From the IMG/VR virus record IMGVR_UViG_2636416131_000002: DNA of 37,548 nucleotides, one strand, 5' to 3'. Each line of letters starts with the position of its first letter. Within the stretch, counting starts at the first letter, position 1. The position numbers and the translations under genes were made by a program. Positions 643 through 16,221 of this stretch are shown one piece after another. This DNA comes from a virus (taxonomy: Duplodnaviria > Heunggongvirae > Uroviricota > Caudoviricetes). The notes under the pieces are model-generated. The model saw only the letters and a list, made by a program, of their open reading frames with translations. It was not told the DNA's origin and did not search any database.

Positions 643-654
643 GGGCAAATCCAA
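1..654 (+). mobile_element. IS2 insertion sequence, right-hand portion; element continues upstream of the window
   Basis: Open frame from position 1 encodes the C-terminus of an IS3-family DDE transposase (…[15 protein letters not shown]…), followed at 643-654 by terminal sequence ending GGGGCAAATCCA, which matches the IS2 right end as I recall it. Confidence 0.75.
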
Positions 655-739
655 CCAGATACGTAATTTCCCTCCATGGTTTTCCACGCCTGTCGGATAT
701 TTCATTTCAACTTCTCTCATTAGTTAGTGTGGCTTTTAG

Positions 740-991
740 TCAAGTAAGATGACGTCTTGGTCTCGCTGATGCCTGGCGCTCAATCCAGCGATCAATTTCT
801 TCCAGGTTGTAAAAGCATGGACTGTTATCCCATGGCATACCGTCATGAGCGACATGCTTATATTCCCTTCCTTCCATAAACGATTTTTCCCGGGCCTTTT
901 TTAACGTACCTTTTTTTATTCCTTTCAGCGCAATTAACTGCTCTTCGGATACCCATTTGCCGGGAGAGACAATCATGATTACTTCGCTCAT
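740..991 (-). CDS. Excisionase-like small DNA-binding protein (Xis / DUF1233 type)
   Basis: 83-aa ORF next to the IS2 end at the head of the leftward operon, the position of xis in lambdoid phages. Family assignment is from recalled motifs only. Confidence 0.5.
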   Translation of the reverse strand: MSEVIMIVSPGKWVSEEQLIALKGIKKGTLKKAREKSFMEGREYKHVAHDGMPWDNSPCFYNLEEIDRWIERQASARPRRHLT

Positions 992-1063
992 CGATTTCTT
1001 TATCTCTTACATCAGACGAGCGCCGGTTGCAGAATACCAGTCACAACCGGCGACAGTTGAACA

Positions 1064-3535
1064 TTAAGAATCAGCCTGACTCGGGATCAGTTTTTGCCAG
1101 ATAACTGAAACGTATTTTGCCTGGTAACGGGCGTCATCAAGTGCATTATGGCGCTCACCTTCGAATGGAATAGCCGTTCTGGCATCGAAGTCTATGGCTT
1201 TCCCCAGCTCAACGATTGTGCGTACATCGCGATCGTTGTAGTAACGCCACGGGCAGGGGATCCCCTGCCGTTCGTATGAACGGCGCAAAATCGTGTTGTC
1301 GAAGTTGGCTCCATTTCCCCAAACCTGAACAAAAAATTCACCGGAGTTTTCGTCGATAAATTCCCGCAATTGTAACAGTGCATCATCTAACGGGATTTCA
1401 TCGGTCATAATGGCAGATTGCGCTTCGCGTGATTGCTTAAGCCACCATTTAATGGTGTCCCGATCAATGACTCCGCCAGCAGTTTCCAGATCGATAGTCT
1501 TACTAAATTCCGGTCCCATATCTCCGGTTTGCGGATCGAAAAATATTGCACCTATTGAGATGATCGGGGCATCAGGATTTTTTCCCATGGTTTCAAGGTC
1601 GATCATTAGATGGTCACACGTCCTGCTGGTGGATGTGATTTCGTGATGACCGTTCACCTTAATTGGGTGATCTGCCGTCTCGCCAGTTTCATTATCGCTA
1701 TTGTGATGCTGATTGCCGCCAGTGTTCTCCTTGTGTGGATGTTCAGCGCCTTCCATTTCCTCCGGATCATCTTCCTGAACTTCAACCTGATACTCTTCAT
1801 CGAATGTTTCTTGGTATGTTGCGTCGCCCATCACCGCGCCACAATCAGGGCAGTTGCCGCCGCCGGTCTGACCGCAGGCGGTGCAGGCTTTTTCCACTTC
1901 CTGTTGCGCCACTGGTTCAGGCTGTTTCGTTTCTGGCTCGTTTTGTAACGCATTTGGACTGTTTTGTTCCGCTTTTTGGTAGTTCCGTTCCGATTCATGC
2001 TGGTTCTGGTTCACAGAATCGCGGGTCTGGATCCCCTTAACCCATTTCGGATCATTCGGGTCACTAATCCCTTCAACAAATTCACCACGTGATGCAGCAA
2101 GCAACTTATCGGCGTCAGGCTGGCTGATATTGGCTGCCTGCATAATTTTGTTTACTTCGTCAGCGGTAACTTTTATCGGCTCTGGTTGTTCTGAATCTTC
2201 AGCGGTATCTACATTTTGCGGTAAGCCCGTGTATGTGCCATTTTTTCGGGCAAAATATTCTTCTTTTGTGATTTCAGTGGCGCCAGCAGCCAGTGCCTTA
2301 TCCAGACCAGAAAGTTTGTTTGCGCGACCGTATTTTTCTCCGTCCTTATCTGCGAAGAGGAAATAGAACGGCCCCTCACGCTCTACAGATGGTTCAGCTT
2401 CCGGCGCGGTTTCATTTTTTGGGATATCAGATACCTCAGTTTCCACTGCATCAGTTTGTGTTTCTGATGACTGGAGAACATCAACAGTGCCCAGGTCTGT
2501 TTCTTCATTCTCAAACACGCCCTTTGTCGTCAGGTATTCGCAGATATATTTGTTCAGTGCTACGGGATCTTTGTGAATGTCGATCGGACGCTCACGGACA
2601 AGGCCAAAAATAGTTTGGCGGTCGTAGCGAAGGGCATCAGGCTGTTTGCGCATTGATGCCGAGATACGCTTCCAGTCTTCGCGGTCGTTGTCGATAACTT
2701 CTTTTTTTGCCCAGCGATGGATGCTGCCGTCAATGTTTCCGGCATCCACATCACCAGGCCAGAGAGCGTAGGCCAGTTCGTCATCCAGTGTTTTCCATGT
2801 CTGCTTGTATTCGCGATGAATGGCAGCAATGACCGGGCTGATTTTTCCTGTTGAATTTTCAGTGTACTGTTGATTGGCTCTGGCGCGGGCGAGATCAACA
2901 ACAGACGTGTATTTTCCGGTTTCCTTGCGTTCACCTTCGCGACGTTTTTTCCAGATGCGCATCTCTGCCTGAATTTCGGGCCATTTAGCACCAGGAATAC
3001 ATTTATGCTTAACCCACCCAATGGCGTGCAACTTAAGCTCCGGATACATGGCGTTAACTTCTGGCATTTTCATCAACGCTTCAACGATATGTCCGTCGAA
3101 TGTTGCCATGTCTTCCTGCAACAATTCCTGTGCGCTAATAACCATATCAACGGTGATGTTTTCACATGTGTCGAACTTAACCATGACAGCGTTCTGTACT
3201 TCAGGGGCCAGCTTGTCAAAAGTGACGTTCATCGGATCGGATTCAGTCTCAACCGGGACAAAAGAAGCAGACTCCTCATCCCAGCGGTTTTCCTGCATAT
3301 ATTCAGCATCCCATGAATCGAGGGCAGGGCGGGGTATGCCAGGTTTATCCTCGCAGACAATAAATTTATAAGCGCAGTCCTGAGCAGCCGGATAATGTTC
3401 CAGGAACTGCCAGTGAAATTTTGCTCGAGCACGGCGTTCGTCGCCAGCTTCAATGGCTGTGGCTACAGCCACAGCGCCTTCTTCCCTTGTTGCCAGTTCG
3501 TCAGGAATAGCGGCGCAAATAAAGACTTTACTCAT
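1064..3535 (-). CDS. Prophage exonuclease, 823 aa: long acidic N-terminal region with a CxxC-x14-CxxC zinc ribbon plus C-terminal DnaQ-like DEDDh 3'-5' exonuclease domain
   Basis: C-terminus carries the DEDDh motifs (MIDLETMG; WGNGANFDNTIL; HNALDDARY). Zinc ribbon is CTACGQTGGGNCPDCG. GAGG ribosome-binding site upstream of the ATG at 3535. Sits where exo/recE lies in lambdoid phages. Confidence 0.8.
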   Translation of the reverse strand: MSKVFICAAIPDELATREEGAVAVATAIEAGDERRARAKFHWQFLEHYPAAQDCAYKFIVCEDKPGIPRPALDSWDAEYMQENRWDEESASFVPVETESDPMNVTFDKLAPEVQNAVMVKFDTCENITVDMVISAQELLQEDMATFDGHIVEALMKMPEVNAMYPELKLHAIGWVKHKCIPGAKWPEIQAEMRIWKKRREGERKETGKYTSVVDLARARANQQYTENSTGKISPVIAAIHREYKQTWKTLDDELAYALWPGDVDAGNIDGSIHRWAKKEVIDNDREDWKRISASMRKQPDALRYDRQTIFGLVRERPIDIHKDPVALNKYICEYLTTKGVFENEETDLGTVDVLQSSETQTDAVETEVSDIPKNETAPEAEPSVEREGPFYFLFADKDGEKYGRANKLSGLDKALAAGATEITKEEYFARKNGTYTGLPQNVDTAEDSEQPEPIKVTADEVNKIMQAANISQPDADKLLAASRGEFVEGISDPNDPKWVKGIQTRDSVNQNQHESERNYQKAEQNSPNALQNEPETKQPEPVAQQEVEKACTACGQTGGGNCPDCGAVMGDATYQETFDEEYQVEVQEDDPEEMEGAEHPHKENTGGNQHHNSDNETGETADHPIKVNGHHEITSTSRTCDHLMIDLETMGKNPDAPIISIGAIFFDPQTGDMGPEFSKTIDLETAGGVIDRDTIKWWLKQSREAQSAIMTDEIPLDDALLQLREFIDENSGEFFVQVWGNGANFDNTILRRSYERQGIPCPWRYYNDRDVRTIVELGKAIDFDARTAIPFEGERHNALDDARYQAKYVSVIWQKLIPSQADS

Positions 3536-3628
3536 TTTGTTTTAACCTCATGACAGATTTAAGGATGAACAAATCCCTGCCATTGCTGGCATATAAGAAT
3601 GAAACCGGATATTTATTACGGAACTGTT

Positions 3629-3820
3629 TTAAAGACCTGCCGGGATTTCGATATTATCCTGGTGAATAACTTTATCGACCGGGTAACAGTTACCGGGAAT
3701 TTTCTGTTCGGTTGCTGCAGTCATACACTCCTGCATTGTCCTGTGAACACTGACTGCAATATCAACTGGCACTCCGGAAACAAGAAAAACTGTCAGAACA
3801 AGCGCAAATGCTGAATTCAT
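3629..3820 (-). CDS. ydfD: YdfD-like small membrane lysis protein (63 aa)
   Basis: Internal start MNSAFALVLTVFLVSGVPVD… gives 63 aa with one hydrophobic helix. The ATG overlaps the dicB stop (ATGA). Matches Qin YdfD by length and remembered sequence. Confidence 0.75.
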   Translation of the reverse strand: MNSAFALVLTVFLVSGVPVDIAVSVHRTMQECMTAATEQKIPGNCYPVDKVIHQDNIEIPAGL

Positions 3821-4005
3821 TGTGCACATCCTTTTGGCATCAGACGTAAACGAGCCAGCATTGAAACAATGCATATTTTATTTAATAGCTCCCGTTCTTG
3901 TTTTCTCTTGTTAATGGCATCTTCAGTAAATACAGGGTTACTGATAGTGACACCAATTTCAAAACAACCTTCAGACGTATTAACGTTTGGTAATAACGTT
4001 TTCAT
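3817..4005 (-). CDS. dicB: DicB cell-division inhibitor (62 aa)
   Basis: MKTLLPNVNTSEGCFEIGVTISNPVFTEDAINKRKQERELLNKICIVSMLARLRLMPKGCAQ, 62 aa, GAGGA ribosome-binding site upstream, immediately downstream of DicF. Confidence 0.9.
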   Translation of the reverse strand: MKTLLPNVNTSEGCFEIGVTISNPVFTEDAINKRKQERELLNKICIVSMLARLRLMPKGCAQ

Positions 4006-4175
4006 TATCGCGTCCTCAACAATGAATTCTGTGATGCAGTGCCTGGTGCCTCCAGGTGACGTTAACCAGTTAACAATTAACGTCGGATACAGAGAATCCA
4101 CCCATAACACTGTTTTTGGTTTTAACTGTTCCGCGTGCGCTTAGCCGTATTCACCGCATCACAAAATTCACTTTA

Positions 4176-4232
4176 AAAAGGGCGGCAGAGCAGTCACGGA
4201 GTAAAACTGATACCGCCAAACGTCACCAGAAA
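4176..4232 (-). ncRNA. dicF: DicF small RNA (Hfq-dependent, ftsZ-targeting) with its intrinsic terminator
   Basis: Reverse complement of 4176-4232 reads TTTCTGGTGACGTTTGGCGGTATCAGTTTTACTCCGTGACTGCTCTGCCGCCCTTTTT, matching DicF as I recall it; GC stem followed by a U run. Confidence 0.9.
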
Positions 4233-4263
4233 ATTGATAACAGAGGGCGTTGCAGCGGGGTTG

Positions 4264-4455
4264 TCACTTAAGCGTATGGTCAACCTGACAACCCGGTGTC
4301 CTCAACGGGGAAGGAATAACCCCGCCATACTTACCGCCGCGCCATTTTGCGGGTTGCCACAACCGGAAGCGCACGGTCGAATTAAATTTAACGACACCGT
4401 ACAGTGAGACGAACTTCGCCGTGCGCTTTCGTGTTGTGTGCCTGCTTTTAACCAC
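4264..4455 (-). CDS. YdfC-like ORF upstream of DicF; may instead be DicF precursor leader
   Basis: 63-aa GTG-initiated frame in a GC-rich, structured region directly 5' of DicF. Coding status uncertain. Confidence 0.25.
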   Translation of the reverse strand: MVKSRHTTRKRTAKFVSLYGVVKFNSTVRFRLWQPAKWRGGKYGGVIPSPLRTPGCQVDHTLK

Positions 4456-4470
4456 GTCAGGCGAGGTGGT

Positions 4471-4499
4471 ATCCTTAAAATCACCACAGTTTTAAGGAT
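4471..4499. repeat. Perfect 10-bp inverted repeat ATCCTTAAAA / TTTTAAGGAT with 9-bp spacer
   Basis: Read directly. Lies at the stop of the minus-strand 205-aa ORF and 11 nt upstream of the plus-strand ORF at 4510. No U tract follows on either strand, so not a typical intrinsic terminator. Confidence 0.6.
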
Positions 4500-5067
4500 T
4501 CATTAAGCAATGTCGCAACCACCAATAAATCCGCTTAAGAACATGAAAATTGATTACTGGTATAAAGCTCTTACAGTTGTTGGCGCTGCGTTGTTTGTCT
4601 TTAATGGAACGTCTTTTTTTGACAGATATCCCGTTGTTCCATTGGGTTTTTTGTCCTCCGGCATCTTTTTTATTGGTTTGGGGGAGTGGATTAATCACCC
4701 TCTCATAGTGAGATTTATTGGTCCTGGAGTTTGGACTCGTGGATATAATCGTTCTTCGTGCGCACTCGGTATCATCTTCGACATACTTGGTTGTTTCCTG
4801 ATTGTTACAGGAGTCGTCAAGTTCTTCTGATGTAAAACCGCAAATGGGGCACGTAACGGGAATTTTGAAAAGCGTTTCTCCGGGTTCCAGAACAAAATTT
4901 TCTGCGGTCTGATTTTGCTTCTCATATTTGTGCTCCGCGTCATTGTGAGAGCACATTCTTATTCTGAGTGCCTGTTTAAACTCACTGAAGCTGAGAGCTT
5001 CTTCGCCTTCGGCAAGGCCTTCGAAGTATTCTTCGTAAGCCTTTTCCATGATTGTGTCGAAATCCAT
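4492..5067 (-). CDS. Hypothetical protein with YdfB-like N-terminus (MDFDTIMEKAYEEYFEG…); frame stays open 191 codons
   Basis: AGGTGA ribosome-binding site before the ATG at 5067, directly after the upstream gene's stop. N-terminal ~80 residues look protein-like; the C-terminal ~100 residues are N/K/R/S-rich and overlap the plus-strand membrane ORF. Confidence 0.4.
   Translation of the reverse strand: MDFDTIMEKAYEEYFEGLAEGEEALSFSEFKQALRIRMCSHNDAEHKYEKQNQTAENFVLEPGETLFKIPVTCPICGFTSEELDDSCNNQETTKYVEDDTECARRTIISTSPNSRTNKSHYERVINPLPQTNKKDAGGQKTQWNNGISVKKRRSIKDKQRSANNCKSFIPVINFHVLKRIYWWLRHCLMNP
4510..4830 (+). CDS. Putative small inner-membrane protein (about 3 predicted transmembrane helices), antisense to the leftward operon
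   Basis: 106-aa ORF with three hydrophobic stretches (ALTVVGAALFVF; GFLSSGIFFIGLG; ALGIIFDILGCFLIVTGVV). AAGGA 11 nt upstream of ATG. Fully overlapped by the minus-strand ORF 4492..5109; only one is likely real here. Confidence 0.35.
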   Translation: MSQPPINPLKNMKIDYWYKALTVVGAALFVFNGTSFFDRYPVVPLGFLSSGIFFIGLGEWINHPLIVRFIGPGVWTRGYNRSSCALGIIFDILGCFLIVTGVVKFF

Positions 5068-5068
5068 A

Positions 5069-5224
5069 TCACTCACCTGAGTTTCTTTCCAGCCAGCGAC
5101 GGGCACCATTTTCGGTTTTAAACGTTTTGCTTTTGGTATACGTCATCGCGGTGAACGTGCCGTCCTGGTTGGGGAACACGCCACATACCAGAGATTCGCT
5201 GTTGCCAAGATCGATAGTATCCAT
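5069..5224 (-). CDS. YdfA / YdaF-like small protein (51 aa)
   Basis: MDTIDLGNSESLVCGVFPNQDGTFTAMTYTKSKTFKTENGARRWLERNSGE, GAGGT ribosome-binding site upstream, first gene after the leftward promoter. Length matches the K-12 ydfA/ydaF paralogs. Confidence 0.6.
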   Translation of the reverse strand: MDTIDLGNSESLVCGVFPNQDGTFTAMTYTKSKTFKTENGARRWLERNSGE

Positions 5225-5300
5225 GCTGACCTCATTTCCCCTTAACGCCGGGGTAGCGGAACTGTTTGCTGAGAACACCGTGCGGTGTCTTGATGGAGGT

Positions 5301-5329
5301 AATTTAGTTTTCTCATTATTTTTCGTCAA
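5301..5329 (-). promoter_or_regulatory. Early-left (PL-like) promoter: -35 TTGACG, 17-bp spacer, -10 TAAATT, read on minus strand
   Basis: Hexamers read directly with 17-bp spacing, about 75 nt upstream of the ydfA-like start and flanked or overlapped by two copies of the operator motif. Confidence 0.45.
5303..5316. promoter_or_regulatory. Operator copy 2 (TTTAGTTTTCTCAT), overlaps the -10 of the PL-like promoter
   Basis: 12 of 14 positions match the palindromic operator at 5875-5888 when read on the opposite strand (ATGAGAAAACTAAA). Confidence 0.45.
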
Positions 5330-5338
5330 GTTTTTTTG

Positions 5339-5352
5339 ATTAGAAAACTCAA
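5339..5352. promoter_or_regulatory. Operator copy 1 (ATTAGAAAACTCAA), just upstream of the PL-like -35
   Basis: 12 of 14 positions match the palindromic operator at 5875-5888. Confidence 0.45.
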
Positions 5353-5416
5353 GTGTTGGCGCAAGATAAAGCCAATACATTGAAATGTAAGGCTTTAAAA
5401 TTTTGTGAAGGGATGA

Positions 5417-5824
5417 TTATTGATGCTTGTTGCGTTTGCGAGCCTCTAATAGCTCGGTGAACAGGCGATTAAAATTCTCAACGCGGGCGCGGAGTTCGCT
5501 GAGTTGTGCTTGTTGCTCTGATTTAGGAAGTGCGCGATACAAACGCAGCATCTCTAACTCATCTTCCGATAAGTCTAAGGCACTATCGAGTGAAACAGGG
5601 GGAGCTGGTGTTTTGTCCTCGTCGCCAAACAGTATCCAAGTTGGTGAACATTGCAATACCTCGGCGAGGCGATGCAAATTTTGCCCGCGCGGGGCTGTAT
5701 GGTCACTTTCCCATAATGAAATTGATGAGCCAGATACGCCAGCAGCTTTGCTTAAACCGTTTTGACTTAAGCCTACCTGCTTACGTCTTTCTCTAATGCG
5801 TTGACCTAAAGTTTTCTCGTTCAT
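5417..5824 (-). CDS. dicA: DicA / RacR-family HTH (XRE-type) prophage repressor, 135 aa from the internal ATG
   Basis: HTH region QVGLSQNGLSKAAGVSGSSISLWE and the motif LQCSPTWILFGDEDK, which I recall from DicA. Divergent from a Cro-like gene. An in-frame upstream ATG at 5875 (152 aa) sits inside the operator palindrome and could serve a leaderless transcript. Confidence 0.7.
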   Translation of the reverse strand: MNEKTLGQRIRERRKQVGLSQNGLSKAAGVSGSSISLWESDHTAPRGQNLHRLAEVLQCSPTWILFGDEDKTPAPPVSLDSALDLSEDELEMLRLYRALPKSEQQAQLSELRARVENFNRLFTELLEARKRNKHQ

Positions 5825-5845
5825 ATTTAGATATCTTAATAACCC

Positions 5846-5875
5846 TTGACTTGAGATTCCTTGAGTGATTAGCAT
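5846..5875 (+). promoter_or_regulatory. Early-right (PR-like) promoter: -35 TTGACT, 18-bp spacer, -10 TAGCAT
   Basis: Hexamers read directly; the -10 abuts the perfect palindrome at 5875-5888; Cro-like ATG at 5902. Confidence 0.4.
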
Positions 5876-5888
5876 TGAGAAAACTCAA
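5875..5888. promoter_or_regulatory. Perfect 14-bp palindromic operator TTGAGAAAACTCAA
   Basis: Read directly. Lies between the divergent repressor and Cro-like genes; two further TTGAG half-sites at 5851 and 5861. Confidence 0.6.
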
Positions 5889-5901
5889 TATTGGAGGTGC
5901 G

Positions 5902-6129
5902 ATGTTTAAATCAGACGTAATTAATTTTTACGGTACGAAAGCCAAAGTAGCGAAAGCTGCTGGCGTTGACCCATCTGCTGTTTCTCAATGGCAAGAGCTG
6001 GTTCCTGAAGGTCGCGCGATGCGTCTACAGGAGGCATCTGGCGGCGAGCTTCTGTATGATCCCAAGGTTTATGACGAATATCGTAAGACGAAGCGGGCGG
6101 GGCGGTTGAACAATGAAAATCACTCCTGA
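5902..6129 (+). CDS. Cro-like small HTH regulator (DicC / YdaS type), 75 aa
   Basis: MFKSDVINFYGTKAKVAKAAGVDPSAVSQWQ… HTH, divergent from the repressor, GGAGG ribosome-binding site. The ORF track starts it at an upstream in-frame codon (5875). Confidence 0.7.
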   Translation: MFKSDVINFYGTKAKVAKAAGVDPSAVSQWQELVPEGRAMRLQEASGGELLYDPKVYDEYRKTKRAGRLNNENHS

Positions 6130-6634
6130 ACAGGCTCGTGAGGCTCTGGATGCCTGGATATGTCGACCAGGAATGACACAGGAGCAGGCGACGATATTAA
6201 TCACTGAAGCATTCTGGGCTTTGAAAGAGCGCCCGAACATCGATGTTCAGCGTGTCACAGATGAAGGTGGCGCGGTTGATCAGCGAGCACTTGGCGTTAA
6301 TCGAGTGAAGATATTCGAACGCTGGAAGGCTATCGACACCAGGGATAAGCGTGAAAAGTTCACGGCGCTAGTGCCTGCAATTATGGAGGCTATTCGGATT
6401 AATGATTTCAGGTTGTATCGTGAAATTAGTGACGGAAAAAGCATCACGTACATGATCGCCGGGTTAAACAAAGAATATGGCGATGTGGTGGAGTCCGGAC
6501 TGCTTTTTGCTGATCCTGCCGTAGTGGATCGTGAAACTGACGAACTTATAGAAAAAGCAATTGCTTTCAAACTTGCGTATCGACAGCAATACCAACAAAA
6601 AGCTGGATGGAATTATGAGCCTTCTTTTTGCTGA
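6113..6634 (+). CDS. YdaT-like protein (CII-position regulator), 173 aa
   Basis: Follows the Cro-like gene with overlapping stop/start, as ydaS-ydaT do in Rac-type immunity regions. Family call from position and recalled similarity. Confidence 0.55.
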   Translation: MKITPEQAREALDAWICRPGMTQEQATILITEAFWALKERPNIDVQRVTDEGGAVDQRALGVNRVKIFERWKAIDTRDKREKFTALVPAIMEAIRINDFRLYREISDGKSITYMIAGLNKEYGDVVESGLLFADPAVVDRETDELIEKAIAFKLAYRQQYQQKAGWNYEPSFC

Positions 6635-7580
6635 ACGCCCACTGGTTATAAACACACAGCTTGCGATGAAGATTGGCTTAAATGAAGCCATTGTGTTGCA
6701 GCAGTTGCATTACTGGTTGAGAGATACCAATTCCGGCATGGAATGTGATGGTGTTCGCTGGATTTACAACACAACGGAACAATGGCTGGAACAGTTCCCA
6801 TTCTGGTCAGAGTCAACGTTAAAGCGCGCGTTTGCAAGTCTGAAAACGCTGGGGCTTTTGCGTTGTGAAAAGCTCAATAAATCAAAGCGCGATATGACCA
6901 ATTTCTACACGATCAACTACGGGAGCGAGCTTTTAGATGGTGGCAAATTGAGCGAATCCATCGGTTTAAAATGCGCCGCTCCATCAGGTCAAAATGACAC
7001 GATGGAAGAGGTCAAAATGAAACGCTCCATTGGTTCAAAACGACCCAATGTCATCGGGTCAAAATGGCCTGATGATCTTACAGAGAATACAACAGAGATT
7101 ACTACAGAGAATAAAAACACTTTTCGTCCGGAAGCTTCGCAACCGGACCCGCAGACCGCTGAACAGGATTTTTTAACCCGGAACCCCGACGCGGTTGTGT
7201 TTAGTGCGAAAAAACGCCAGTGGGGTAGCAGGGAGGATTTGGCGTGTGCGCAGTGGATTTGGGGGCGGATCGTGAACCTTTACGAACAGGCTGCCAGCGA
7301 CGATGGAGAGATCATGCGACCAAAAGAGCCTAACTGGACAGCCTGGGCCAATGACGTGCGCACAATGCGGATGCTGGATGGCAGAAGCCACAGACAAATT
7401 TGCGAAATGTTTGGTCGGGTACAGCGAGATCAATTCTGGGTAAAAAACATCATGAGCCCGTCAAAACTCCGCGAAAAATGGGACGAACTGGTCATCCGCC
7501 TGGGACGTTCACCTGTACAGCGTTGTGTGAATCATATTTCTGAACCGGATACAGAAATTCCGCCTGGTTTCAGGGGATAA
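6615..7580 (+). CDS. Phage replication initiation protein (O-like / replisome-organizer type) containing the iteron array
   Basis: N-terminal winged-helix-like region (LNEAIVLQQLHYWLRD…LKRAFASLKTLGLL) and internal DNA iterons at 6956-7065, the lambda O / ori arrangement. Start chosen at the ATG at 6615, overlapping the upstream gene. Confidence 0.65.
   Translation: MSLLFAERPLVINTQLAMKIGLNEAIVLQQLHYWLRDTNSGMECDGVRWIYNTTEQWLEQFPFWSESTLKRAFASLKTLGLLRCEKLNKSKRDMTNFYTINYGSELLDGGKLSESIGLKCAAPSGQNDTMEEVKMKRSIGSKRPNVIGSKWPDDLTENTTEITTENKNTFRPEASQPDPQTAEQDFLTRNPDAVVFSAKKRQWGSREDLACAQWIWGRIVNLYEQAASDDGEIMRPKEPNWTAWANDVRTMRMLDGRSHRQICEMFGRVQRDQFWVKNIMSPSKLREKWDELVIRLGRSPVQRCVNHISEPDTEIPPGFRG
6956..7065. 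repeat. Five iterons, consensus TCCATCnGGTCAAAATG, spaced 22-24 bp (candidate origin)
   Basis: Copies start at about 6956, 6980, 7003, 7025 and 7049, read directly; located inside the replication gene. Confidence 0.7.
7080..7113. repeat. Three ACAGAGAWTA repeats at 12-bp period in an AT-rich stretch next to the iterons
   Basis: ACAGAGAATA, ACAGAGATTA, ACAGAGAATA read directly; iterons followed by an AT-rich segment is the lambda ori pattern. Confidence 0.4.
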
Positions 7581-7620
7581 GTGTTGATTTTAGGGTATAA
7601 AGTAATGTTCAGGAGGACTT

Positions 7621-8040
7621 GTGGCAAAAGTTTTTACACAAGAAGAGCGGGAAAAAATTAAAGGGCAGGTGGTGGAACTCGTACGCCAGAGTGGGCGCGA
7701 GACGTTACGACAACTGGAAGCTAAAACTGGGGCAACAAGATATCTGATGAGCGTTCTGGCCAGAGAGCTGGTTGCCAGTGGCGATGTATACAGCTCTGGT
7801 TACGGGTTATTCCCGTCTGAACAGGCGCGTAAGGACTGGCAAAACGCCCGCAAAAAACTCTCGAGGGCAAAGGTGAAGAAACCTGCTGTGGTTGATCCGG
7901 ACCTTATCTGGTCATTACCTGACGGAGAAATACGTCGCTACGACAGTCGTCTAAACATAATCTGTCGCGAGTGCCGGAAGGCAAGGAGAAGCAGGCTATT
8001 GTTAACACCAAGCTGTAATGTCCCCTTTGAACCATTCTAA
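7621..8040 (+). CDS. Hypothetical protein, 139 aa, GTG start; 3' end may be altered by the adjacent insertion sequence
   Basis: Strong AGGAGG ribosome-binding site before GTG at 7621. Sits where a helicase loader would be expected, but no Walker motif is visible. ORF ends 34 nt before the transposase ATG. Confidence 0.5.
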   Translation: MAKVFTQEEREKIKGQVVELVRQSGRETLRQLEAKTGATRYLMSVLARELVASGDVYSSGYGLFPSEQARKDWQNARKKLSRAKVKKPAVVDPDLIWSLPDGEIRRYDSRLNIICRECRKARRSRLLLTPSCNVPFEPF

Positions 8041-9640
8041 AATGTCCCCAGACAATTCTCTGGGGGATTTTTCATGATCAAAGAGACTGTTACGATGAGT
8101 CATAAGGAACTCCACCGACTTCAGATTATTCAGGAGTCAATTAATCGACATATTACTCAGGAACAAGCTGCGGCACGCATTGGCATTTCTATTCGGCAGG
8201 TTAAACGTCTGGTGCAACGGTATAGAAATGAAGGGCCTTCTGGTCTGGTTTCCCACCGACGTGGAAAGCGTCCTAATAATTCCTTTTCTACTGAATTCAG
8301 AGCAACAGTAATTTCACTCCTCAAAGGCCGTTACGCTGATTTTGGACCTACGTTTGCGTGCGAAAAATTGCGCGAGATACACGGTTTATCTTTATCCGTT
8401 GAAACTCTCAGAAAGTGGATGATAGAAGAGGGGTTATGGCGTGAACGCCGTCGTAAAATTGCCCGTATATATCAACGCCGCATGCGACGACCATCTTACG
8501 GTGAACTGATCCAGATTGATGGCTCACCTCATGACTGGTTTGAAAATCGAGGCCCCAGATGTACACTGATCGTTTTCATTGATGATGCCACCAGTGCGTT
8601 GATGGCGTTGCGTTTTGTGCCTGCTGAAACAACCCGGGCTTACATGGAAACCCTCCGGGGTTACCTTAATGATCATGGCGTACCGCTCGCTCTCTACTCT
8701 GATAGACACAGTATATTCAGGGTAAATAACCCAGAGCGGGAAGGTGAGCTGACCCAGTTCACTCGTGCGATAAAGACACTGGGCATCGAGCCAATCCATG
8801 CCAACAGCCCGCAGGCAAAAGGGCGGGTAGAGCGCGCCAATCAGACACTACAGGACAGGCTGGTCAAAGAAATGCGGCTTCAGAATATCAGTGATATTGA
8901 AACAGCAAATGCATGGTTGCCGACCTTTATTGAAGCCTATAACAACCGGTTCGCTACGTCGCCTCGTACTACTGATAATGCTCATCTTGATGTGCACCAT
9001 TCTGAAGAGGAACTGGGTTATATCTTCAGCCTACAGGCGAAGCGCGTTCTGTCTAAAAATCTCACTTTCCAGTACAAAAGCAGTGCGTTTCAGGTACGCA
9101 GTGAGGGCCGGGGATATCGACTTAGGCATTCAGTTGTTACTGTATGTGAGAACTTTGACGGTGAAATTAACGTTCTGTATGACGGGAAAGCGCTGGGCTG
9201 GGAAAAGTATGTTGATGGCCCGGAGCCTATACCACTGGATGATGAAAAGAGTGTCCATGAACGAGTGGATAATGCCCGTATTGATTTACGCTCAAAATAC
9301 TATGTTAAATCTAAAGCTGACCATCCCTGCTTACGCGCCGAACGCAAAGTCATCAGTAAGTTAAGCCCCCGAAGTTACCTAAAAAGAAGCCTGATCCCGA
9401 TAAAATAGATTGAAACCAAGATCGATTCGGTTGAGTGCATATCCATTCATAGGGTAGATTCTTAAGTCGCGTTTCTGGTGTTCATTTTCGGGTGGTTTGT
9501 TACTTGTTTTACCGGGGATATGCCAGAAACGCGCTGAGTCAGTCTGGGCGGTGCGCGTAATGAGGCGTTATGGTAAATAGCCTATGCTAATGTCCGCTAA
9601 GAGCAAGAAGCGGAAGTTGGCAGTTTTGTGGACTGTCCCC
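8041..9640 (+). mobile_element. Insertion sequence carrying the 444-aa transposase; ends not resolved
   Basis: Transposase gene interrupts the replication / nin region. I could not identify terminal inverted repeats; TGTCCCCA occurs in direct orientation at 8043-8050 and 9634-9641 and might mark a target duplication. Boundaries are approximate. Confidence 0.3.
8074..9408 (+). CDS. DDE transposase (rve / integrase-core type), 444 aa, N-terminal HTH
   Basis: N-terminal HTH (ITQEQAAARIGISIRQVKRLVQRY), central integrase-core-like region with conserved D/E residues, size and layout typical of single-ORF IS481 / ISNCY-like elements. Family not resolved without search. Confidence 0.8.
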   Translation: MIKETVTMSHKELHRLQIIQESINRHITQEQAAARIGISIRQVKRLVQRYRNEGPSGLVSHRRGKRPNNSFSTEFRATVISLLKGRYADFGPTFACEKLREIHGLSLSVETLRKWMIEEGLWRERRRKIARIYQRRMRRPSYGELIQIDGSPHDWFENRGPRCTLIVFIDDATSALMALRFVPAETTRAYMETLRGYLNDHGVPLALYSDRHSIFRVNNPEREGELTQFTRAIKTLGIEPIHANSPQAKGRVERANQTLQDRLVKEMRLQNISDIETANAWLPTFIEAYNNRFATSPRTTDNAHLDVHHSEEELGYIFSLQAKRVLSKNLTFQYKSSAFQVRSEGRGYRLRHSVVTVCENFDGEINVLYDGKALGWEKYVDGPEPIPLDDEKSVHERVDNARIDLRSKYYVKSKADHPCLRAERKVISKLSPRSYLKRSLIPIK

Positions 9641-9808
9641 ACAAAAGTGACTACAGAAATAGTTGCAATTCATAATTGATCATGGGTTGTCAGTTAAACT
9701 CGTGGCGATTTAAATAGACTAATTGGGAGTGCGTCCATTACTTATATCTTGTAATGTTAACTATCAGAAATGATACAAAGATAATATGTCTTTAAAGAAA
9801 AGGCTGAT

Positions 9809-9835
9809 GGCGAAAAGTGGCCCGATGAGGGCCAC
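9809..9835 (-). terminator. Intrinsic terminator downstream of flxA
   Basis: Stem GTGGCCC / GGGCCAC with 5-nt loop, followed on the minus strand by TTTTCG. Confidence 0.6.
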
Positions 9836-9849
9836 AATACGGCTGTCAC

Positions 9850-10182
9850 TTAGACGTAAATATCAATGGTGCCAGCGGTATTTGTATCGTCTTTTTTCTC
9901 TTCTTTTTTATCAGGCTGAACTGTCGCGTCTTTATTCTTTTTCTCTGCCTGCTGCCTTAACAACTGCTCCAGTTGAGCCCTGAGGCTTTCAATTTGCTTC
10001 TGTACCAATGCAGCCATTTCTTTTTTCTGCTGTGTCGTCATCCCCTCTTCCGATGAGATTTTCCCAAGCTTTTCAGTCAGCACCTGAATTTGTCTTGTGA
10101 TTTTGGCTATTTCTGATGTTCCTTCCGGGGCGGAGTTGTTTGAAATAACGGTTGAGGTATTTCCCTGAATTGTGACAGACAT
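9850..10182 (-). CDS. flxA: FlxA (FliA-regulated protein), 110 aa
   Basis: MSVTIQGNTSTVISNNSAPEG…, coiled-coil rich, AGGAG ribosome-binding site, sigma-28 promoter directly upstream. Matches Qin flxA in length and sequence as recalled. Confidence 0.85.
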   Translation of the reverse strand: MSVTIQGNTSTVISNNSAPEGTSEIAKITRQIQVLTEKLGKISSEEGMTTQQKKEMAALVQKQIESLRAQLEQLLRQQAEKKNKDATVQPDKKEEKKDDTNTAGTIDIYV

Positions 10183-10205
10183 AGATTTCTCCTTTTAAAA
10201 AAGCA

Positions 10206-10232
10206 CTATCGGCATGCACAAAAAAATCTTTA
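10206..10232 (-). promoter_or_regulatory. Sigma-28 (FliA) class-3 promoter: TAAAGATT, 11 nt, GCCGATAG
   Basis: Minus strand reads TAAAGATT-N11-GCCGATAG against consensus TAAAGTTT-N11-GCCGATAA, about 25 nt upstream of the flxA ATG. Confidence 0.7.
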
Positions 10233-10384
10233 ATCGTATTTCTTGTGTCATTAATTGTTTGATGTTCAGATTGTTTTCCTCGCGGGCTGGCGCGCCTCAG
10301 AAAGTAAAGCTTGTTGACAGGGGTAAACGTTCGGCAATAATTTTCTGCCGCATGCGGGTGTTGCATAAAACGTGCTACGTTCCT

Positions 10385-10690
10385 TTATCGACAGGTCAGG
10401 TCACCACTCACCCGCCGACGAGAAAGCAACACTGACATGCTAAAGCAAAAAATAGATGAATAAGTTGAGTTGTGCATATGTAGCCTGACCGTCACAAAGT
10501 ATATGGTGTCTGTACCAGTAAGATGATGGCCGGACTCTTTAAAAACGAGCTGACCTGCACAATACAGGATGGACTTAGCAATGGCTGCTCCTGGCACAAA
10601 GCGGACAGTGATCACCGTTCTTACGACTACTTTCTGACTTCCTTCGTGACTTGCCCTAAGCATGTTGTAGTGCGATACTTGTAATGACAT
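10385..10690 (-). CDS. YdfV-like ORF, 101 aa
   Basis: Length equals K-12 ydfV and position (between flxA and relB) agrees. Composition is not strongly protein-like and it overlaps the relBE promoter region. Confidence 0.3.
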   Translation of the reverse strand: MSLQVSHYNMLRASHEGSQKVVVRTVITVRFVPGAAIAKSILYCAGQLVFKESGHHLTGTDTIYFVTVRLHMHNSTYSSIFCFSMSVLLSRRRVSGDLTCR

Positions 10691-10703
10691 TTGTAATTAC
10701 AAG
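10677..10703. promoter_or_regulatory. relBE operator: palindrome CTTGTAAT…ATTACAAG
   Basis: ACTTGTAATGACATTTGTAATTACAAGA read directly, 12 nt upstream of the relB ATG. Confidence 0.6.
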
Positions 10704-10714
10704 AGGTGTAAGAC

Positions 10715-10954
10715 ATGGGTAGCATTAACCTGCGTATTGACGATGAACTTAAAGCGCGTTCTTACGCCGCGCTTGAAAAAATGGGTGTAACTCCTTCTGA
10801 AGCGCTTCGTCTCATGCTCGAGTATATCGCTGACAATGAACGCTTGCCGTTCAAACAGACACTCCTGAGTGATGAAGATGCTGAACTTGTGGAGATAGTG
10901 AAAGAACGGCTTCGTAATCCTAAGCCAGTACGTGTGACGCTGGATGAACTCTGA
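10715..10954 (+). CDS. relB: RelB antitoxin, 79 aa
   Basis: MGSINLRIDDELKARSYAALEKMGVTPSEALRLMLEYIADNERLPF…; stop overlaps the relE start. Confidence 0.9.
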   Translation: MGSINLRIDDELKARSYAALEKMGVTPSEALRLMLEYIADNERLPFKQTLLSDEDAELVEIVKERLRNPKPVRVTLDEL

Positions 10955-11241
10955 TGGCGTATTTTCTGGATTTTGACGAGCGGGCACTAAAGGAATGGCG
11001 AAAGCTGGGCTCGACGGTACGTGAACAGTTGAAAAAGAAGCTGGTTGAAGTACTTGAGTCACCCCGGATTGAAGCAAACAAGCTCCGTGGTATGCCTGAT
11101 TGTTACAAGATTAAGCTCCGGTCTTCAGGCTATCGCCTTGTATACCAGGTTATAGACGAGAAAGTTGTCGTTTTCGTGATTTCTGTTGGGAAAAGAGAAC
11201 GCTCGGAAGTATATAGCGAGGCGGTCAAACGCATTCTCTGA
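10954..11241 (+). CDS. relE: RelE mRNA-interferase toxin, 95 aa
   Basis: MAYFLDFDERALKEWRKLGSTVREQLKKKL…RLVYQVIDEKVVVFVISVGKRERSEVY, translationally coupled to relB. Confidence 0.9.
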   Translation: MAYFLDFDERALKEWRKLGSTVREQLKKKLVEVLESPRIEANKLRGMPDCYKIKLRSSGYRLVYQVIDEKVVVFVISVGKRERSEVYSEAVKRIL

Positions 11242-11312
11242 ACCAAAGCATGACATCTCTGTTTCGCACCGAAGGTGACACTTCTGCTTTGCGTTGACAG
11301 GAGAAGCAGGCT

Positions 11313-11468
11313 ATGAAGCAGCAAAAGGCGATGTTAATCGCCCTGATCGTCATCTGTTTAACCGTCATAGTGACGGCACTGGTAACGAGGAAAGACCTCT
11401 GCGAGGTACGAATCCGAACCGGCCAGACGGAGGTCGCTGTCTTCACAGCTTACGAACCTGAGGAGTAA
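11313..11468 (+). CDS. hokD: HokD (RelF) Hok-family membrane toxin, 51 aa; below the ORF-track size cutoff
   Basis: Translated by hand: MKQQKAMLIALIVICLTVIVTALVTRKDLCEVRIRTGQTEVAVFTAYEPEE, third gene of the relBEF operon. Confidence 0.85.
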   Translation: MKQQKAMLIALIVICLTVIVTALVTRKDLCEVRIRTGQTEVAVFTAYEPEE

Positions 11469-11536
11469 GAGACCCGGCGGGGGAGAAATCCCTCGCCACC
11501 TCTGATGTGGCAGGCATCCTCAACGCACCCGCACTT

Positions 11537-11567
11537 AACCCGCTTCGGCGGGTTTTTGTTTTTATTT
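11537..11567 (+). terminator. Intrinsic terminator after hokD
   Basis: ACCCGC-TTCG-GCGGGT stem-loop followed by TTTTTGTTTTTATTTT. Confidence 0.8.
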
Positions 11568-11684
11568 TCAACGCGTTTGAAGTTCTGGACGGTGCCGGAA
11601 TAGAATCAAAAATACTTAAGTAGCGCGCAGGGATAAGAGGGATGGTCCCTTAAAGGGGAGAGCTAATTATCCGGAAGGATTCTG

Positions 11685-11936
11685 ATGATGAACATCGAAG
11701 AACTGCGTAAAATTTTTTGTGAAGATGGCCTCTATGCTGTGTGCGTTGAAAATGGAAATCTTGTTAGTCATTACCGCATTATGTGTTTGCGAAAGAATGG
11801 GGCTGCGTTAATTAATTTTGTGGATGCTCGGGTCACGGACGGATTTATCTTGCGCGAAGGTGAGTTTGTCACTTCATTACAGGCATTGAAAGAGATCGGA
11901 ATAAAAGCTGGCTTTTCTGCTTTTTCAGGAGAATAA
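11685..11936 (+). CDS. rem: Rem-like protein, 83 aa
   Basis: 83-aa ORF between the relBEF terminator and ydfU, matching the position and length of Qin rem. Confidence 0.6.
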   Translation: MMNIEELRKIFCEDGLYAVCVENGNLVSHYRIMCLRKNGAALINFVDARVTDGFILREGEFVTSLQALKEIGIKAGFSAFSGE

Positions 11937-12002
11937 ACTCATCTACAATCTTGCGCGGGGCTGAACTCCCGCTGAGTAACACCGTGCCACCGGAGAAAAC
12001 CG

Positions 12003-12281
12003 ATGGCACGCAACGCAAAATATTACAATTCTGATAATTCGCCCGTTCTTGCCTGCACGCACGGGCGGTATTCTCACGCATTCAAGTCTGAATGGTTCCA
12101 GCACCCTCCATGCACTGCAGAACAGGCCGAATGGCTGATTCATTCTTACCGCAGGCGCGGGTTCGAGGTTAAGAAAGCTCTCAGTCTCGACTATCGGCAC
12201 TGGATAATCTCTGTCAGGCTGCCTTATTCCGAACGCCCACCACGTGCGTCCCGCACTTTCCAGCAACGGATCTGGAGGTAA
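12003..12281 (+). CDS. Hypothetical small protein, 92 aa, translationally coupled to ydfU
   Basis: GGAGAAAA ribosome-binding site before the ATG; stop lies 1 nt before the ydfU GTG. No family recognised. Confidence 0.35.
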   Translation: MARNAKYYNSDNSPVLACTHGRYSHAFKSEWFQHPPCTAEQAEWLIHSYRRRGFEVKKALSLDYRHWIISVRLPYSERPPRASRTFQQRIWR

Positions 12282-12282
12282 C

Positions 12283-13332
12283 GTGCGGGTATTACTTAGA
12301 CCTGTTCTGGTGCCTGAGCTTGGGCTGGTGGTCCTTAAGCCGGGCCGTGAATCCATACAGATATTTCATAATCCTCGAGTGCTGGTGGAACCGGAACCAA
12401 AAAGCATGCGTAATCTGCCATCCGGAGTCGTTCCTGCCGTTCGCCAGCCGCTGGCGGAAGACAAAACATTGCTGCCGTTTTTTAGTAACGAACGGGTGAT
12501 TCGTGCTGCTGGCGGCGTTGGCGCATTGTCCGACTGGCTATTACGTCATGTTACATCCTGCCAGTGGCCTAATGGCGATTACCATCACACTGAAACAGTC
12601 ATTCACCGTTATGGTACCGGCGCAATGGTGTTGTGCTGGCACTGCGACAACCAACTGCGTGACCAGACATCGGAATCACTGGAGCTGCTTGCTCAACAAA
12701 ATCTGACAGCATGGGTGATTGACGTCATCCGTCACGCAATAAGCGGTACGCAGGAGCGGGAATTATCTTTGGCTGAATTATCCTGGTGGGCGGTCTGCAA
12801 TCAGGTGGTGGATGCACTACCTGAGGCTGTATCGCGTCGTTCGCTGGGATTACCAGCGGAAAAAATCTGCTCGGTGTACCGCGAAAGCGACATCGTACCG
12901 GGAGAGCAGACCGCCACCAGCATATTGAAACAACGCACAAAAAATCTTGCACCGTTGCCTTACGCCCACCAGCAACAAAAATCACCACAGGAAAAGACGG
13001 TGGTAAGCATCACCGTTGATCCAGAGTCTCCGGAATCTTTCATGAAGCTGCCTAAACGTCGCCGCTGGGTTAAGGAGAAATACACACGTTGGGTTAAGAC
13101 ACAGCCGTGTGCTTGCTGCGGTATGCCAGCCGACGATCCGCATCATCTGATTGGTCACGGGCAGGGCGGAATGGGAACAAAAGCACATGATCTCTTTGTG
13201 TTGCCTTTGTGCAGAAAGCATCACAACGAGCTGCATACGGATACAGTGGCATTTGAAGATAAGTATGGCTCCCAACTGGAGCTGATATTTCGTTTTATCG
13301 ATCGCGCGCTGGCAATTGGCGTACTGGCGTAA
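12283..13332 (+). CDS. ydfU: YdfU-like DUF968 protein, 349 aa, with C-terminal Cys/His cluster
   Basis: GTG start preceded by GGAGG gives 349 aa, equal to K-12 YdfU. C-terminal motif CACCGMPADDPHHLIGHGQGGMGTKAHDLFVLPLCRKHHNELH. Confidence 0.75.
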   Translation: MRVLLRPVLVPELGLVVLKPGRESIQIFHNPRVLVEPEPKSMRNLPSGVVPAVRQPLAEDKTLLPFFSNERVIRAAGGVGALSDWLLRHVTSCQWPNGDYHHTETVIHRYGTGAMVLCWHCDNQLRDQTSESLELLAQQNLTAWVIDVIRHAISGTQERELSLAELSWWAVCNQVVDALPEAVSRRSLGLPAEKICSVYRESDIVPGEQTATSILKQRTKNLAPLPYAHQQQKSPQEKTVVSITVDPESPESFMKLPKRRRWVKEKYTRWVKTQPCACCGMPADDPHHLIGHGQGGMGTKAHDLFVLPLCRKHHNELHTDTVAFEDKYGSQLELIFRFIDRALAIGVLA

Positions 13333-13345
13333 GTGGAGAACGAGC

Positions 13346-14098
13346 ATGAACCTTGAAGCCTTACCAAAATATTACTCCCCAAAATCTCCAAAATTGAGCG
13401 ATGACGCTCCAGCGACAGGCACCGGTTGTTTAACAATTACGGATGTAATGGCAGCGCAGGGGATGGTGCAGTCGAAAGCACCACTTGGGTTGGCCTTATT
13501 TCTGGCAAAAGTTGGTGTTCAGGACCCTCAGTTTGCGATTGAAGGCCTGCTAAATTACGCGATGGCACTGGATAACCCGACATTGAACAAATTGAGTGAA
13601 GAAATCCGGTTACAGATTATTCCTTACCTCGTGAGTTTTGCCTTTGCTGATTACTCCAGGTCTGCGGCAAGTAAGGCTCGCTGTGAGCATTGTTCAGGTA
13701 CGGGATTTTATAATGTATTGCGCGAAGTGGTGAAACACTACAGACGCGGGGAATCTGTAATCAAGGAAGAATGGGTGAAGGAACTATGTCAGCATTGCCA
13801 TGGTAAGGGCGAAGCCAGCACAGCGTGCAGAGGGTGTAAGGGTAAAGGGATTGTTCTGGATGAAAAAAGAACCCGGTTTCATGGCGTACCGGTATATAAG
13901 ATTTGTGGGCGTTGTAATGGAAACCGGTTTAGTCGTTTACCGACCACGCTGGCACGACGTCATGTCCAGAAGCTGGTACCAGACCTGACCGATTATCAGT
14001 GGTATAAGGGGTATGCGGACGTCATTGGTAAACTGGTAACAAAGTGCTGGCAGGAAGAAGCATACGCGGAAGCGCAATTGAGGAAGGTGACGAGATAA
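13346..14098 (+). CDS. quuQ: Late-gene antiterminator Q (phage 82 / 21 type), 250 aa
   Basis: MNLEALPKYYSPKSPKLSDDAPATGTGC… with zinc-binding CxxC pairs (CEHCSGTG, CQHCHGKG, CRGCKGKG, CGRCNG). GGAG ribosome-binding site; followed by a late promoter and terminator. Confidence 0.85.
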   Translation: MNLEALPKYYSPKSPKLSDDAPATGTGCLTITDVMAAQGMVQSKAPLGLALFLAKVGVQDPQFAIEGLLNYAMALDNPTLNKLSEEIRLQIIPYLVSFAFADYSRSAASKARCEHCSGTGFYNVLREVVKHYRRGESVIKEEWVKELCQHCHGKGEASTACRGCKGKGIVLDEKRTRFHGVPVYKICGRCNGNRFSRLPTTLARRHVQKLVPDLTDYQWYKGYADVIGKLVTKCWQEEAYAEAQLRKVTR

Positions 14099-14129
14099 AT
14101 GATTTTTGCTGAAGATGGCGACATGATGT

Positions 14130-14158
14130 TTGCATTTTTCAAAAAATATGGATAAAAT
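14130..14158 (+). promoter_or_regulatory. Late promoter (PR'-like): -35 TTGCAT, 17 bp, -10 TAAAAT
   Basis: Hexamers read directly, about 30 nt after the Q stop and about 50 nt upstream of an intrinsic terminator. Confidence 0.5.
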
Positions 14159-14203
14159 TTTTTCAATGATGGGCTTTGTATACCCGACGTTAAGAAAAAG
14201 TAG

Positions 14204-14234
14204 AAAACCCGCTGATGAGCGGGTTTTGTGCTTT
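14204..14234 (+). terminator. Intrinsic terminator (tR'-like) after the late promoter
   Basis: AACCCGC-TGATGA-GCGGGTT stem-loop followed by TTGTGCTTT. Confidence 0.75.
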
Positions 14235-14519
14235 AAATGGGGCAATGGTAATGTTGAATCTCATCCCGGGACTCATGTCTGTTAACTTATTATTTAGCTG
14301 GTGACTTGGTTATTTGCCTGATGTTTAAAATGTTTTCTTCCAGTACAATGTCCCTAAACACAATGAGTCTGCTTATTATATTATTAGCAGAGCTATTACG
14401 GCCAAAGTACAGCATAAGCTTTTAAAGCCAATCAACCAGTCATCAAGACAGACGGGGTTATTCATAAAAACTCTCCATGTGTGATCCGATGGGGCCTGAA
14501 ATTAAAGCTTTAATATAGC

Positions 14520-14732
14520 TCATGAAAGGTAAACATTGGCAGCTGAAGGGCCACGCAGACCATTTATCCGGCAAAATTCCACGCGTAATCCGGTGGTAAT
14601 TTCTTCTGCATCGCGGAGATTGAGCGCTGAAACATGAAGCTGGACATCGATACGACCATCGGATGGGGTGATAAGACCCTTGCCGCTTTTGCCGTCAAAG
14701 GTTTTGACAATTCCTGTCATTTTACGGGACAA
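14520..14732 (-). CDS. cspF: Cold-shock protein CspF, 70 aa
   Basis: [41 protein letters not shown]…, CspA-family fold. Confidence 0.9.
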
Positions 14733-15032
14733 AAAAATTCCTTAATACTGATAACTTGGCGCACTATACACACGTTCCTGAAGAAAGCTATAGTTTTTTG
14801 ATGGGGTTGAAGATGGCTGGATGTCTAAAATAAACATTGCTTCATATGTTCAACTATGCGTTAATGATTGCGTCGGTTTGAAGAACAGACGATATACGAA
14901 GTAGTTTACTAAAGCAGTTCTCATTTCAGGTGTTATTCATTTATTCCTTCTTTGAGTCTCTCCAATTAAGTACGAAGTCGTTTCTGTTATGCAAACCATT
15001 TATGCCGAAAGGCTCAAGTTAAGGAATGTAGA

Positions 15033-15248
15033 ATGTCAAATAAAATGACTGGTTTAGTAAAATGGTTTAACGCTGATAAAGGTTTCGGCTTTATTTCTCC
15101 TGTTGATGGTAGTAAAGATGTGTTTGTGCATTTTTCTGCGATTCAGAATGATAATTATCGAACCTTATTTGAAGGTCAAAAGGTTACCTTCTCTATAGAG
15201 AGTGGTGCTAAAGGTCCTGCAGCAGCAAATGTCATCATTACTGATTAA
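15033..15248 (+). CDS. cspB: Cold-shock protein CspB, 71 aa
   Basis: [71 protein letters not shown]. Confidence 0.95.
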
Positions 15249-15528: not shown

Positions 15529-15556
15529 CAAACCCGCTCAGGCGGGTTTTTTATTA
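15529..15556 (+). terminator. Intrinsic terminator about 280 nt downstream of cspB
   Basis: AACCCGC-TCAG-GCGGGTT followed by TTTTATT. Confidence 0.7.
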
Positions 15557-15611
15557 TCTGCTTTAAATATATTATTAAAATATAAAAAATACTTGTTACT
15601 AATAAAATCAA

Positions 15612-16217: not shown

Positions 16218-16221
16218 TCCA

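Follow-up and report, generated by a model that had tools for sequence, protein, structure and literature searches.

A canonical dicF-dicB-ydfD cassette in a lambdoid prophage of the Qin/mEp460 type, within the leftward early operon

The dicF-dicB-ydfD cassette and its leader

The window analyzed here is the whole 37,548-nt stretch of IMG/VR virus record IMGVR_UViG_2636416131_000002. On its minus strand, a leftward operon runs in the order promoter-like site (~5301-5329), ydfA, ydfB remnant, processing region, dicF, leader, dicB, ydfD, exonuclease, xis, and truncated int (Table 1). The first-pass annotation had placed a dicF-dicB-ydfD cassette at 3629-4232 within an early operon. The span is exact, and the placement agrees with the surrounding genes, as the cassette shares its strand with the DicA-like repressor, ydfA, the exonuclease, xis, and int.

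Table 1. Features of the leftward operon, its control region, and rem, in positions of the window
Feature	Position	Strand	Evidence or remark
IS2-like element end	1-652	+ (transposase core, 22-642)	95% identical to K-12 IS2E
int, first 22 codons	653..720	-	abuts IS2-like element end
Excisionase xis, 83 aa, intact	740..991	-	PF06806, 108.1 bits
Exonuclease, 823 aa, intact, downstream of ydfD	1064..3535	-	Rv2179c-like 3'-5' exonuclease domain, 226.5 bits; PHROG_2082 full length
Terminator-like hairpin after ydfD	3578..3591	-	consensus scan
ydfD, 63 aa (DUF1482)	3629..3820	-	PF07358; translationally coupled to dicB through ATGA overlap
dicB, cell-division inhibitor, 62 aa	3817..4005	-	PF05358; K-12 identity
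Structured leader, 174 nt, between dicF and dicB	4006..4179	-	folding energy, conservation
dicF sRNA, 53 nt	4180..4232	-	Rfam RF00039; identity to K-12 b1574
Conserved non-coding processing region upstream of dicF	4233..4449	-	K-12 alignment, fold
106-aa membrane-protein gene	4510..4830	+	conserved homologues; hydrophobic segments
ydfB remnant	4966..5067	-	partial ydfB by PGAP in strain E2865; BLAST boundaries
ydfA (DUF1391), first operon gene	5069..5224	-	PF07151, 96.2 bits; annotated so in E2865 and K-12
Promoter-like site, dicBp equivalent	5301..5352	-	-35 TTGACG 5329-5324; -10 TAAATT 5306-5301
DicA-type repressor, 135 aa	5417..5824	-	HTH_3, 56.8 bits; 57% identical to K-12 DicA
Repressor/cro intergenic region	5810..5889		further GAGAAAACT copies at 5810-5821 and 5876-5889
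DicC/Cro-like regulator, 75 aa	5902..6129	+	P22_Cro, 58.8 bits; 70% identical to K-12 DicC
YdaT-like gene	6113-6634		diverges from the repressor, as does the Cro-like gene
rem	11685..11936	+	83/83 aa identical to K-12 Rem

An Rfam search of the whole window yielded a single DicF match (RF00039, 4231..4180 on the minus strand, full model 1-52), whose score of 76.7 bits (E 2e-15) exceeds the gathering score of 48. DicF had been described as recognizable base for base on this strand, and the dicF gene of K-12 MG1655 (b1574) indeed occurs as an exact string at 4232..4180 (53/53); this alignment, proposed earlier as a check, takes in both target-pairing regions and reveals no difference in the seed. 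The GC-rich hairpin at the 3' end, in which GGCGGUA pairs with UGCCGCC in the Rfam structure line, is directly followed by the U-tail (TTTTT at 4179..4175), which is the arrangement of an intrinsic terminator. The terminator scan did not flag it because of that scan's loop and stem rules, and it is called here from the Rfam structure and the T-tract. Folded alone, DicF has an energy of -15.9 kcal/mol. The calculated duplex with K-12 ftsZ (-80 to +40) has an energy of -38.5 kcal/mol, which was equalled by 65 of 500 shuffled DicF sequences; because this value is indistinct from that of the shuffles, the claim of pairing rests on identity to the K-12 RNA. As expected for DicF, dicF precedes dicB in the dicB operon and is encoded on the same strand; its processing would follow that of K-12 by analogy.

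DicB matches PF05358 over residues 1-62 of 62 (136.8 bits, gathering 27) and is identical to K-12 DicB at all 62 positions. YdfD matches PF07358 (88.7 bits, gathering 25), has an N-terminal hydrophobic segment at residues 5-23, and agrees with its K-12 counterpart at 61 of 63 residues, the substitutions being V6A and E17V. The dicB stop and the ydfD start share ATGA, confirming the overlap and the protein sizes first reported for the two genes. Over dicB plus ydfD, which occupy 377 nt both here and in K-12, there are three mismatches and no gaps; thus, neither gene hides the frameshift that the first-pass annotation had allowed for. Its statement that dicB follows dicF immediately needs correction, since a 174-nt spacer separates the two, as it does in K-12.

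A GTG-started 97-aa extension of dicB (3817-4110) was rejected: it covers the leader, which is non-coding in K-12, and has no family match. ORFs 4264-4455 and 4302-4487 were likewise judged spurious, as they lie over the processing region, also non-coding in K-12, and match no family. Some of these frames are annotated CDS in HannyBb.

The fold predicted for the leader has a minimum free energy of -65.6 kcal/mol (z -5.56), and none of 200 shuffles folds as well; about five substitutions in 174 nt separate the leader from that of K-12. In this fold, a closing helix of ~27 bp runs from the DicF U-tail region to the dicB Shine-Dalgarno GAGG, in which its other arm ends, and the helix is a likely RNase III substrate. 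A 72-nt DicF form made by RNase III has been reported (PMC5069750), the 3' end of which maps to the window 19 nt past 4180, at the first base of the GAUGCGGUG helix arm. With the published numbering anchored at the 813/814 RNase III cut, the 1,146-nt transcript would end in the 3' arm of the leader helix, and the 1,608-nt K-12 ydfABC-dicFB-ydfD transcript would end at the hairpin 3578-3591.

Part of the leader (4028-4168) aligns with positions 21-154 of the 206-position Rfam STnc100 model (RF02076) at 34.2 bits, and membership in that family was rejected because the score lies below the gathering score of 47. Among the leader relatives, Rac-SA53 gives the best STnc100 score (43.8 bits), and by its sequence the leader appears to be at most a distant STnc100 relative. 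The same conserved leader precedes kil in Rac-SA53, Shigella phage 75/02 Stx, and pPE4; the hairpin upstream of those kil leaders is DicF-terminator-like with a different 5' part and scores 41.1 bits, below the DicF gathering score.

Viral contigs scanned with a 22-nt leader motif gave at least 120 stretches, which together with previously fetched loci make at least 130 places. Among the places listed, the first ORF after the leader is a DicB variant at 90 or more and Kil at 23 or more. Two other ORFs, both putative genes, follow the leader at no fewer than 11 places among the matches listed, and the hairpins upstream of the leader carry at least four different 5' seeds among these matches. 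The 57 distinct leaders among the matches listed, a sample biased by the motif used for its collection, have almost invariant 5' and 3' blocks and a hypervariable center. Most of the 36 consensus pairs in these leaders are invariant or G-U wobble, with two compensatory double changes in one lineage. Folding energy and conservation support the modeled structure, and covariation supports it weakly. In the full-text literature covered on kilR with DicF and on STnc100, we found no description of a leader shared by dicB and kil, which is not proof that it is undescribed.

The upstream operon and the immunity region

The processing region upstream of dicF falls, together with the leader, within a 941-nt BLAST alignment to K-12 at 96.7% identity. 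It is predicted to form a hairpin with its core at about 4359-4441 (fold z -2.65); according to the map in PMC10448788, the RNase III cut giving rise to 190-nt DicF corresponds to ~4369, in the 3' arm of this hairpin. An AU-rich RNase E site is present at the dicF 5' end.

Beyond the processing region, a 522-nt segment (4449-4970) replaces the 3' end of K-12 ydfB and ydfC and carries the 106-aa membrane-protein gene on the opposite strand. Homologues of this protein include those of mEp390 (38% identity) and Burkholderia phage Bcep176 (gp33, 47%); the 60 database homologues, which range down to 34% identity, extend to Yersinia, Herminiimonas, and Reinekea, and no family in Pfam or PHROG was matched. 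The frame antisense to gp33 is closed by stop codons in Bcep176, which indicates that the plus strand is the coding strand. The segment occurs in 796 of 5426 complete E. coli genomes, and "ydfB" is the sole annotation there in nine of the ten full-length matches listed from E. coli genomes. RefSeq usually annotates a partial ydfB alone, and in HannyBb and mEp390 the annotated frame appears to be the antisense one, not the 106-aa gene. Just upstream of the ATG of the 106-aa ORF, a perfect 10-bp inverted repeat (ATCCTTAAAA, 9-nt spacer, TTTTAAGGAT; 4472-4500) covers the likely Shine-Dalgarno AAGGA of that ORF and might serve as an operator or form a translational hairpin.

Homology of ydfB to K-12 ends at 4970, and the open frame continues to 4492, antisense to the membrane-protein gene. 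The resulting 205-aa ORF (4492-5109) was rejected as a gene, since everything after a YdfB-like N-terminal part is antisense to, and in phase with, the 106-aa gene. Its sole PHROG match is a PHROG built from its own copies, and it is annotated in HannyBb.

Inverted GAGAAAACT operator-like repeats flank the dicBp-like site at 5302-5316 and 5339-5352, and further copies lie in the repressor/cro intergenic region. Their presence at both promoter regions is a pattern suggestive of operators common to the left and right promoters. The repressor matches helix-turn-helix families only, is without a protease domain, and has no differences from the HannyBb repressor. DNA similarity to K-12 stops at 5295, just downstream of the left-promoter -10, and resumes at 6001; this break points to the exchange of the immunity module (promoters, operators, repressor, and most of cro) as a block, with a predicted immunity specificity that is different from that of K-12 DicA and Qin.

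In K-12, Rem is the DicA antirepressor (PMC10448788). The window combines the sequence features of the DicA/DicC-plus-Rem immunity type, from which operator binding and Rem action on this repressor allele are predicted. The identity of Rem to its K-12 counterpart, next to a repressor at 57%, raises the question of Rem acting across immunity types. No LexA box of the form CTGT-N8-ACAG was found across the whole window, leaving SOS control of rem or the operon unsupported. With neither a self-cleaving protease domain in the repressor nor a LexA box in the window, induction would, by analogy with K-12 (PMC10448788), proceed through the Rem antirepressor or a DicA/DicC switch and not through RecA cleavage.

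Downstream genes, late modules, and prophage type

The exonuclease gene downstream of ydfD is full length, and K-12 ydfE is a truncated remnant of it, a pseudogene cut by IS2E. At the far end of the operon, an IS2-like element interrupts int after codon 22 (junction 652/653). The sister prophage in strain E2865 has an IS66 in xis. A 444-aa transposase-like ORF with helix-turn-helix domains and rve_3 lies at 8074-9408 (+), with the replication genes on one side and the Qin-like ydfX-flxA region on the other; it is annotated as IS1202-like/ISEsa1 in E2865 and takes the form of two CDS in Tritos and PhiR42_1.

From 9230 to 19621, the window follows the ydfX-ynfO part of K-12 Qin collinearly at about 99% identity, with flxA, relBE, hokD, rem, ydfU, Q, csp genes, and lysis genes. 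The structural modules of cdtI, Tritos, mEp460, and HannyBb match the right half at 96-98% identity. Late genes are present for both terminase subunits (small and large), the portal, the protease/capsid, and, for the tail, the completion, major, tape measure, and minor proteins. Gene J (tail tip) and the fibre genes extend past the end of the window. The first-pass annotation had set the decayed K-12 prophage against complete packaging and tail modules here; the packaging and tail genes do continue to the window end, but "intact" goes further than a cut int and J and fibre genes beyond the window allow. Rfam cspA thermoregulator matches at 14872-15264 (161 bits) and 17775-18161 (112 bits), both on the plus strand, are the leaders of cold-shock genes corresponding to Qin cspB and cspI. 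A tRNA scan of the window found none.

Based on these comparisons, we conclude with high confidence that this is a Qin/mEp460-type lambdoid prophage in which a canonical dicBF cassette forms part of a leftward operon that would be controlled by the repressor and would arrest division.

Distribution, alternative readings, and proposed mechanism

Of the 5426 complete E. coli genomes, 4737 (~87%) have a match to the 1-kb region 3500-4500, the median genome at two places, and 3772 of these 4737 hold at least 80% of it. Among deposited phages, it is found in HannyBb (99.5%), Tritos (97.0%), PhiR42_1 (96.9%), and mEp460_ev081 (96.7%). An earlier report placed the locus in many E. coli and recorded several copies of it in O157:H7 (Balasubramanian et al. 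2016, PMC5069750), and a functional phage with dicB, dicF, dicAC, and rem has been described (Ragunathan et al. 2023, PMC10448788). Given these deposited genomes and the published phage, both the cassette and its intact-phage context are already known. Two further database matches concern phages of other hosts: the record of Aeromonas phage AP1 (MT713136, 249906-250152; T4-like, Straboviridae, 254 kb) includes E. coli dicF with its leader at 98% identity, perhaps through chimeric assembly or contamination, and Actinobacillus phage vB_Apl-pPE4 has a Rac-like dicA-kil-recE region that is 87% identical to E. coli sequence.

Compared with K-12 Qin, dicF (53/53), DicB (62/62), YdfD (61/63), and Rem (83/83) are the same or nearly so; homology extends to ydfA, the processing region, and the leader, and gene order and strand agree (ydfABC-dicF-dicB-ydfDE under DicA, DicC, and Rem). 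The two differ in the immunity module, swapped at 5295-6001 (repressor 57%, Cro 70%), in the 522-nt segment with its opposite-strand gene in place of the ydfB 3' end and ydfC, in the intact exonuclease (IS2-truncated ydfE in K-12), xis, and late genes of the window, and in the site of the IS2-like element, which is ydfE there and int here. The complete phage HannyBb has the identical repressor allele, an identical YdfD, the opposite-strand gene, and rem, and differs slightly in Rem (3 aa), dicF (1 nt), and DicB (1 aa). Tritos has the same gene order and strand, with DicF annotated, and PhiR42_1 matches 90% of window 653-19000 at 99.1%. In PhiR42_1 and Tritos, unlike the window, ydfC is present and the immunity module is another one; the integrase is intact in both of these phages as well as in HannyBb and mEp460_ev081. 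Lambda kil and the Rac-type kilR likewise encode a small FtsZ-acting division inhibitor in a leftward early operon, upstream of recombination and exonuclease genes, but the Kil proteins have no sequence relation to DicB.

The opposite-strand gene could bear on whether the early promoter reaches the cassette at all. This is a real gene between ydfB and dicF, and the operon transcript must cross it; by collision, or through antisense RNA and RNase III, the incoming transcript might be blocked or degraded and dicF and dicB left silent or weak. A rescue from within is not apparent, as the K-12 work turned up no internal dicF promoter (PMC10448788) and a scan of the minus strand over 4233-5300 gave no good promoter here. 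However, the same arrangement persists in HannyBb and in the 796 complete E. coli genomes, no strong terminator appeared in 4831-4970 in the terminator scan, and the identical or near-identical DicB, YdfD, and DicF and the retention of both processing structures are unexpected for a dead module. Because the arrangement is found in a complete phage genome and the genes downstream of it are perfectly conserved, we consider uncoupling very unlikely and favor a cassette expressed from the early operon.

The prophage may already be defective and the cassette a module retained by the host, as in K-12, where DicB-mediated phage protection and stationary-phase DicF are documented, and not part of a productive lytic program. 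Its int is cut by the IS2-like element, a second transposase gene (444 aa) is present, and sister copies carry insertions, such as the IS66 in E2865 xis. On the other hand, every other module seen in the window has its full length and matches deposited phage genomes at 96-99% identity. The remainder of int may sit past the insertion element, and another prophage could supply integrase. We regard a defective prophage as quite possible, though somewhat less probable than its opposite; such a state would alter the context of the cassette and not its identity or mechanism.

The gene identities, gene order, and retained RNA structures established above fit the scheme worked out in K-12 (PMC10448788, PMC5069750), from which the regulatory steps proposed for the repressor-controlled division-arrest operon are taken. 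In the lysogen, the repressor would keep the left promoter off. Its inactivation, by Rem or by a spontaneous or stress-driven DicA/DicC flip, would give one long transcript; Rem control is assumed here by analogy, for a repressor 57% identical to DicA. RNase III would cleave the hairpin upstream of dicF and probably the long leader helix too, RNase E would make the 5' end of 53-nt DicF, and the GGCGG...CCGCC hairpin with its U-tail would terminate part of the transcripts. DicF with Hfq would then block ftsZ translation, and DicB, by analogy with the identical K-12 protein, would bring MinC to the division ring via ZipA and also block ManXYZ-dependent phage entry. YdfD would act as a membrane-anchored lysis protein, with lysis upon overproduction. 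The net effect would be arrest of host division early in lytic development, like that by lambda Kil from the same genome position. The scheme predicts filamentation upon derepression; with int disrupted, derepression may not give phage production.

A broader role for the leader is conceivable, if on balance doubtful: it might be a fixed RNA processing platform instead of a passive spacer, constant and RNase III-gated, around which lambdoid phages shuffle sRNA seeds and small toxic proteins, and in this lineage the convergent membrane-protein gene might damp leaky expression.

As a finding, the cassette adds nothing new, and its value is one of annotation: the window is assigned to a Qin/mEp460-type prophage with an immunity specificity predicted to be unlike that of Qin, and its leftward early operon is fixed. 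Studies of how toxic prophage genes are silenced and processed could draw on the leader common to dicB and kil, the variety of DicF-like seeds, and the opposite-strand gene, which mostly goes unannotated.
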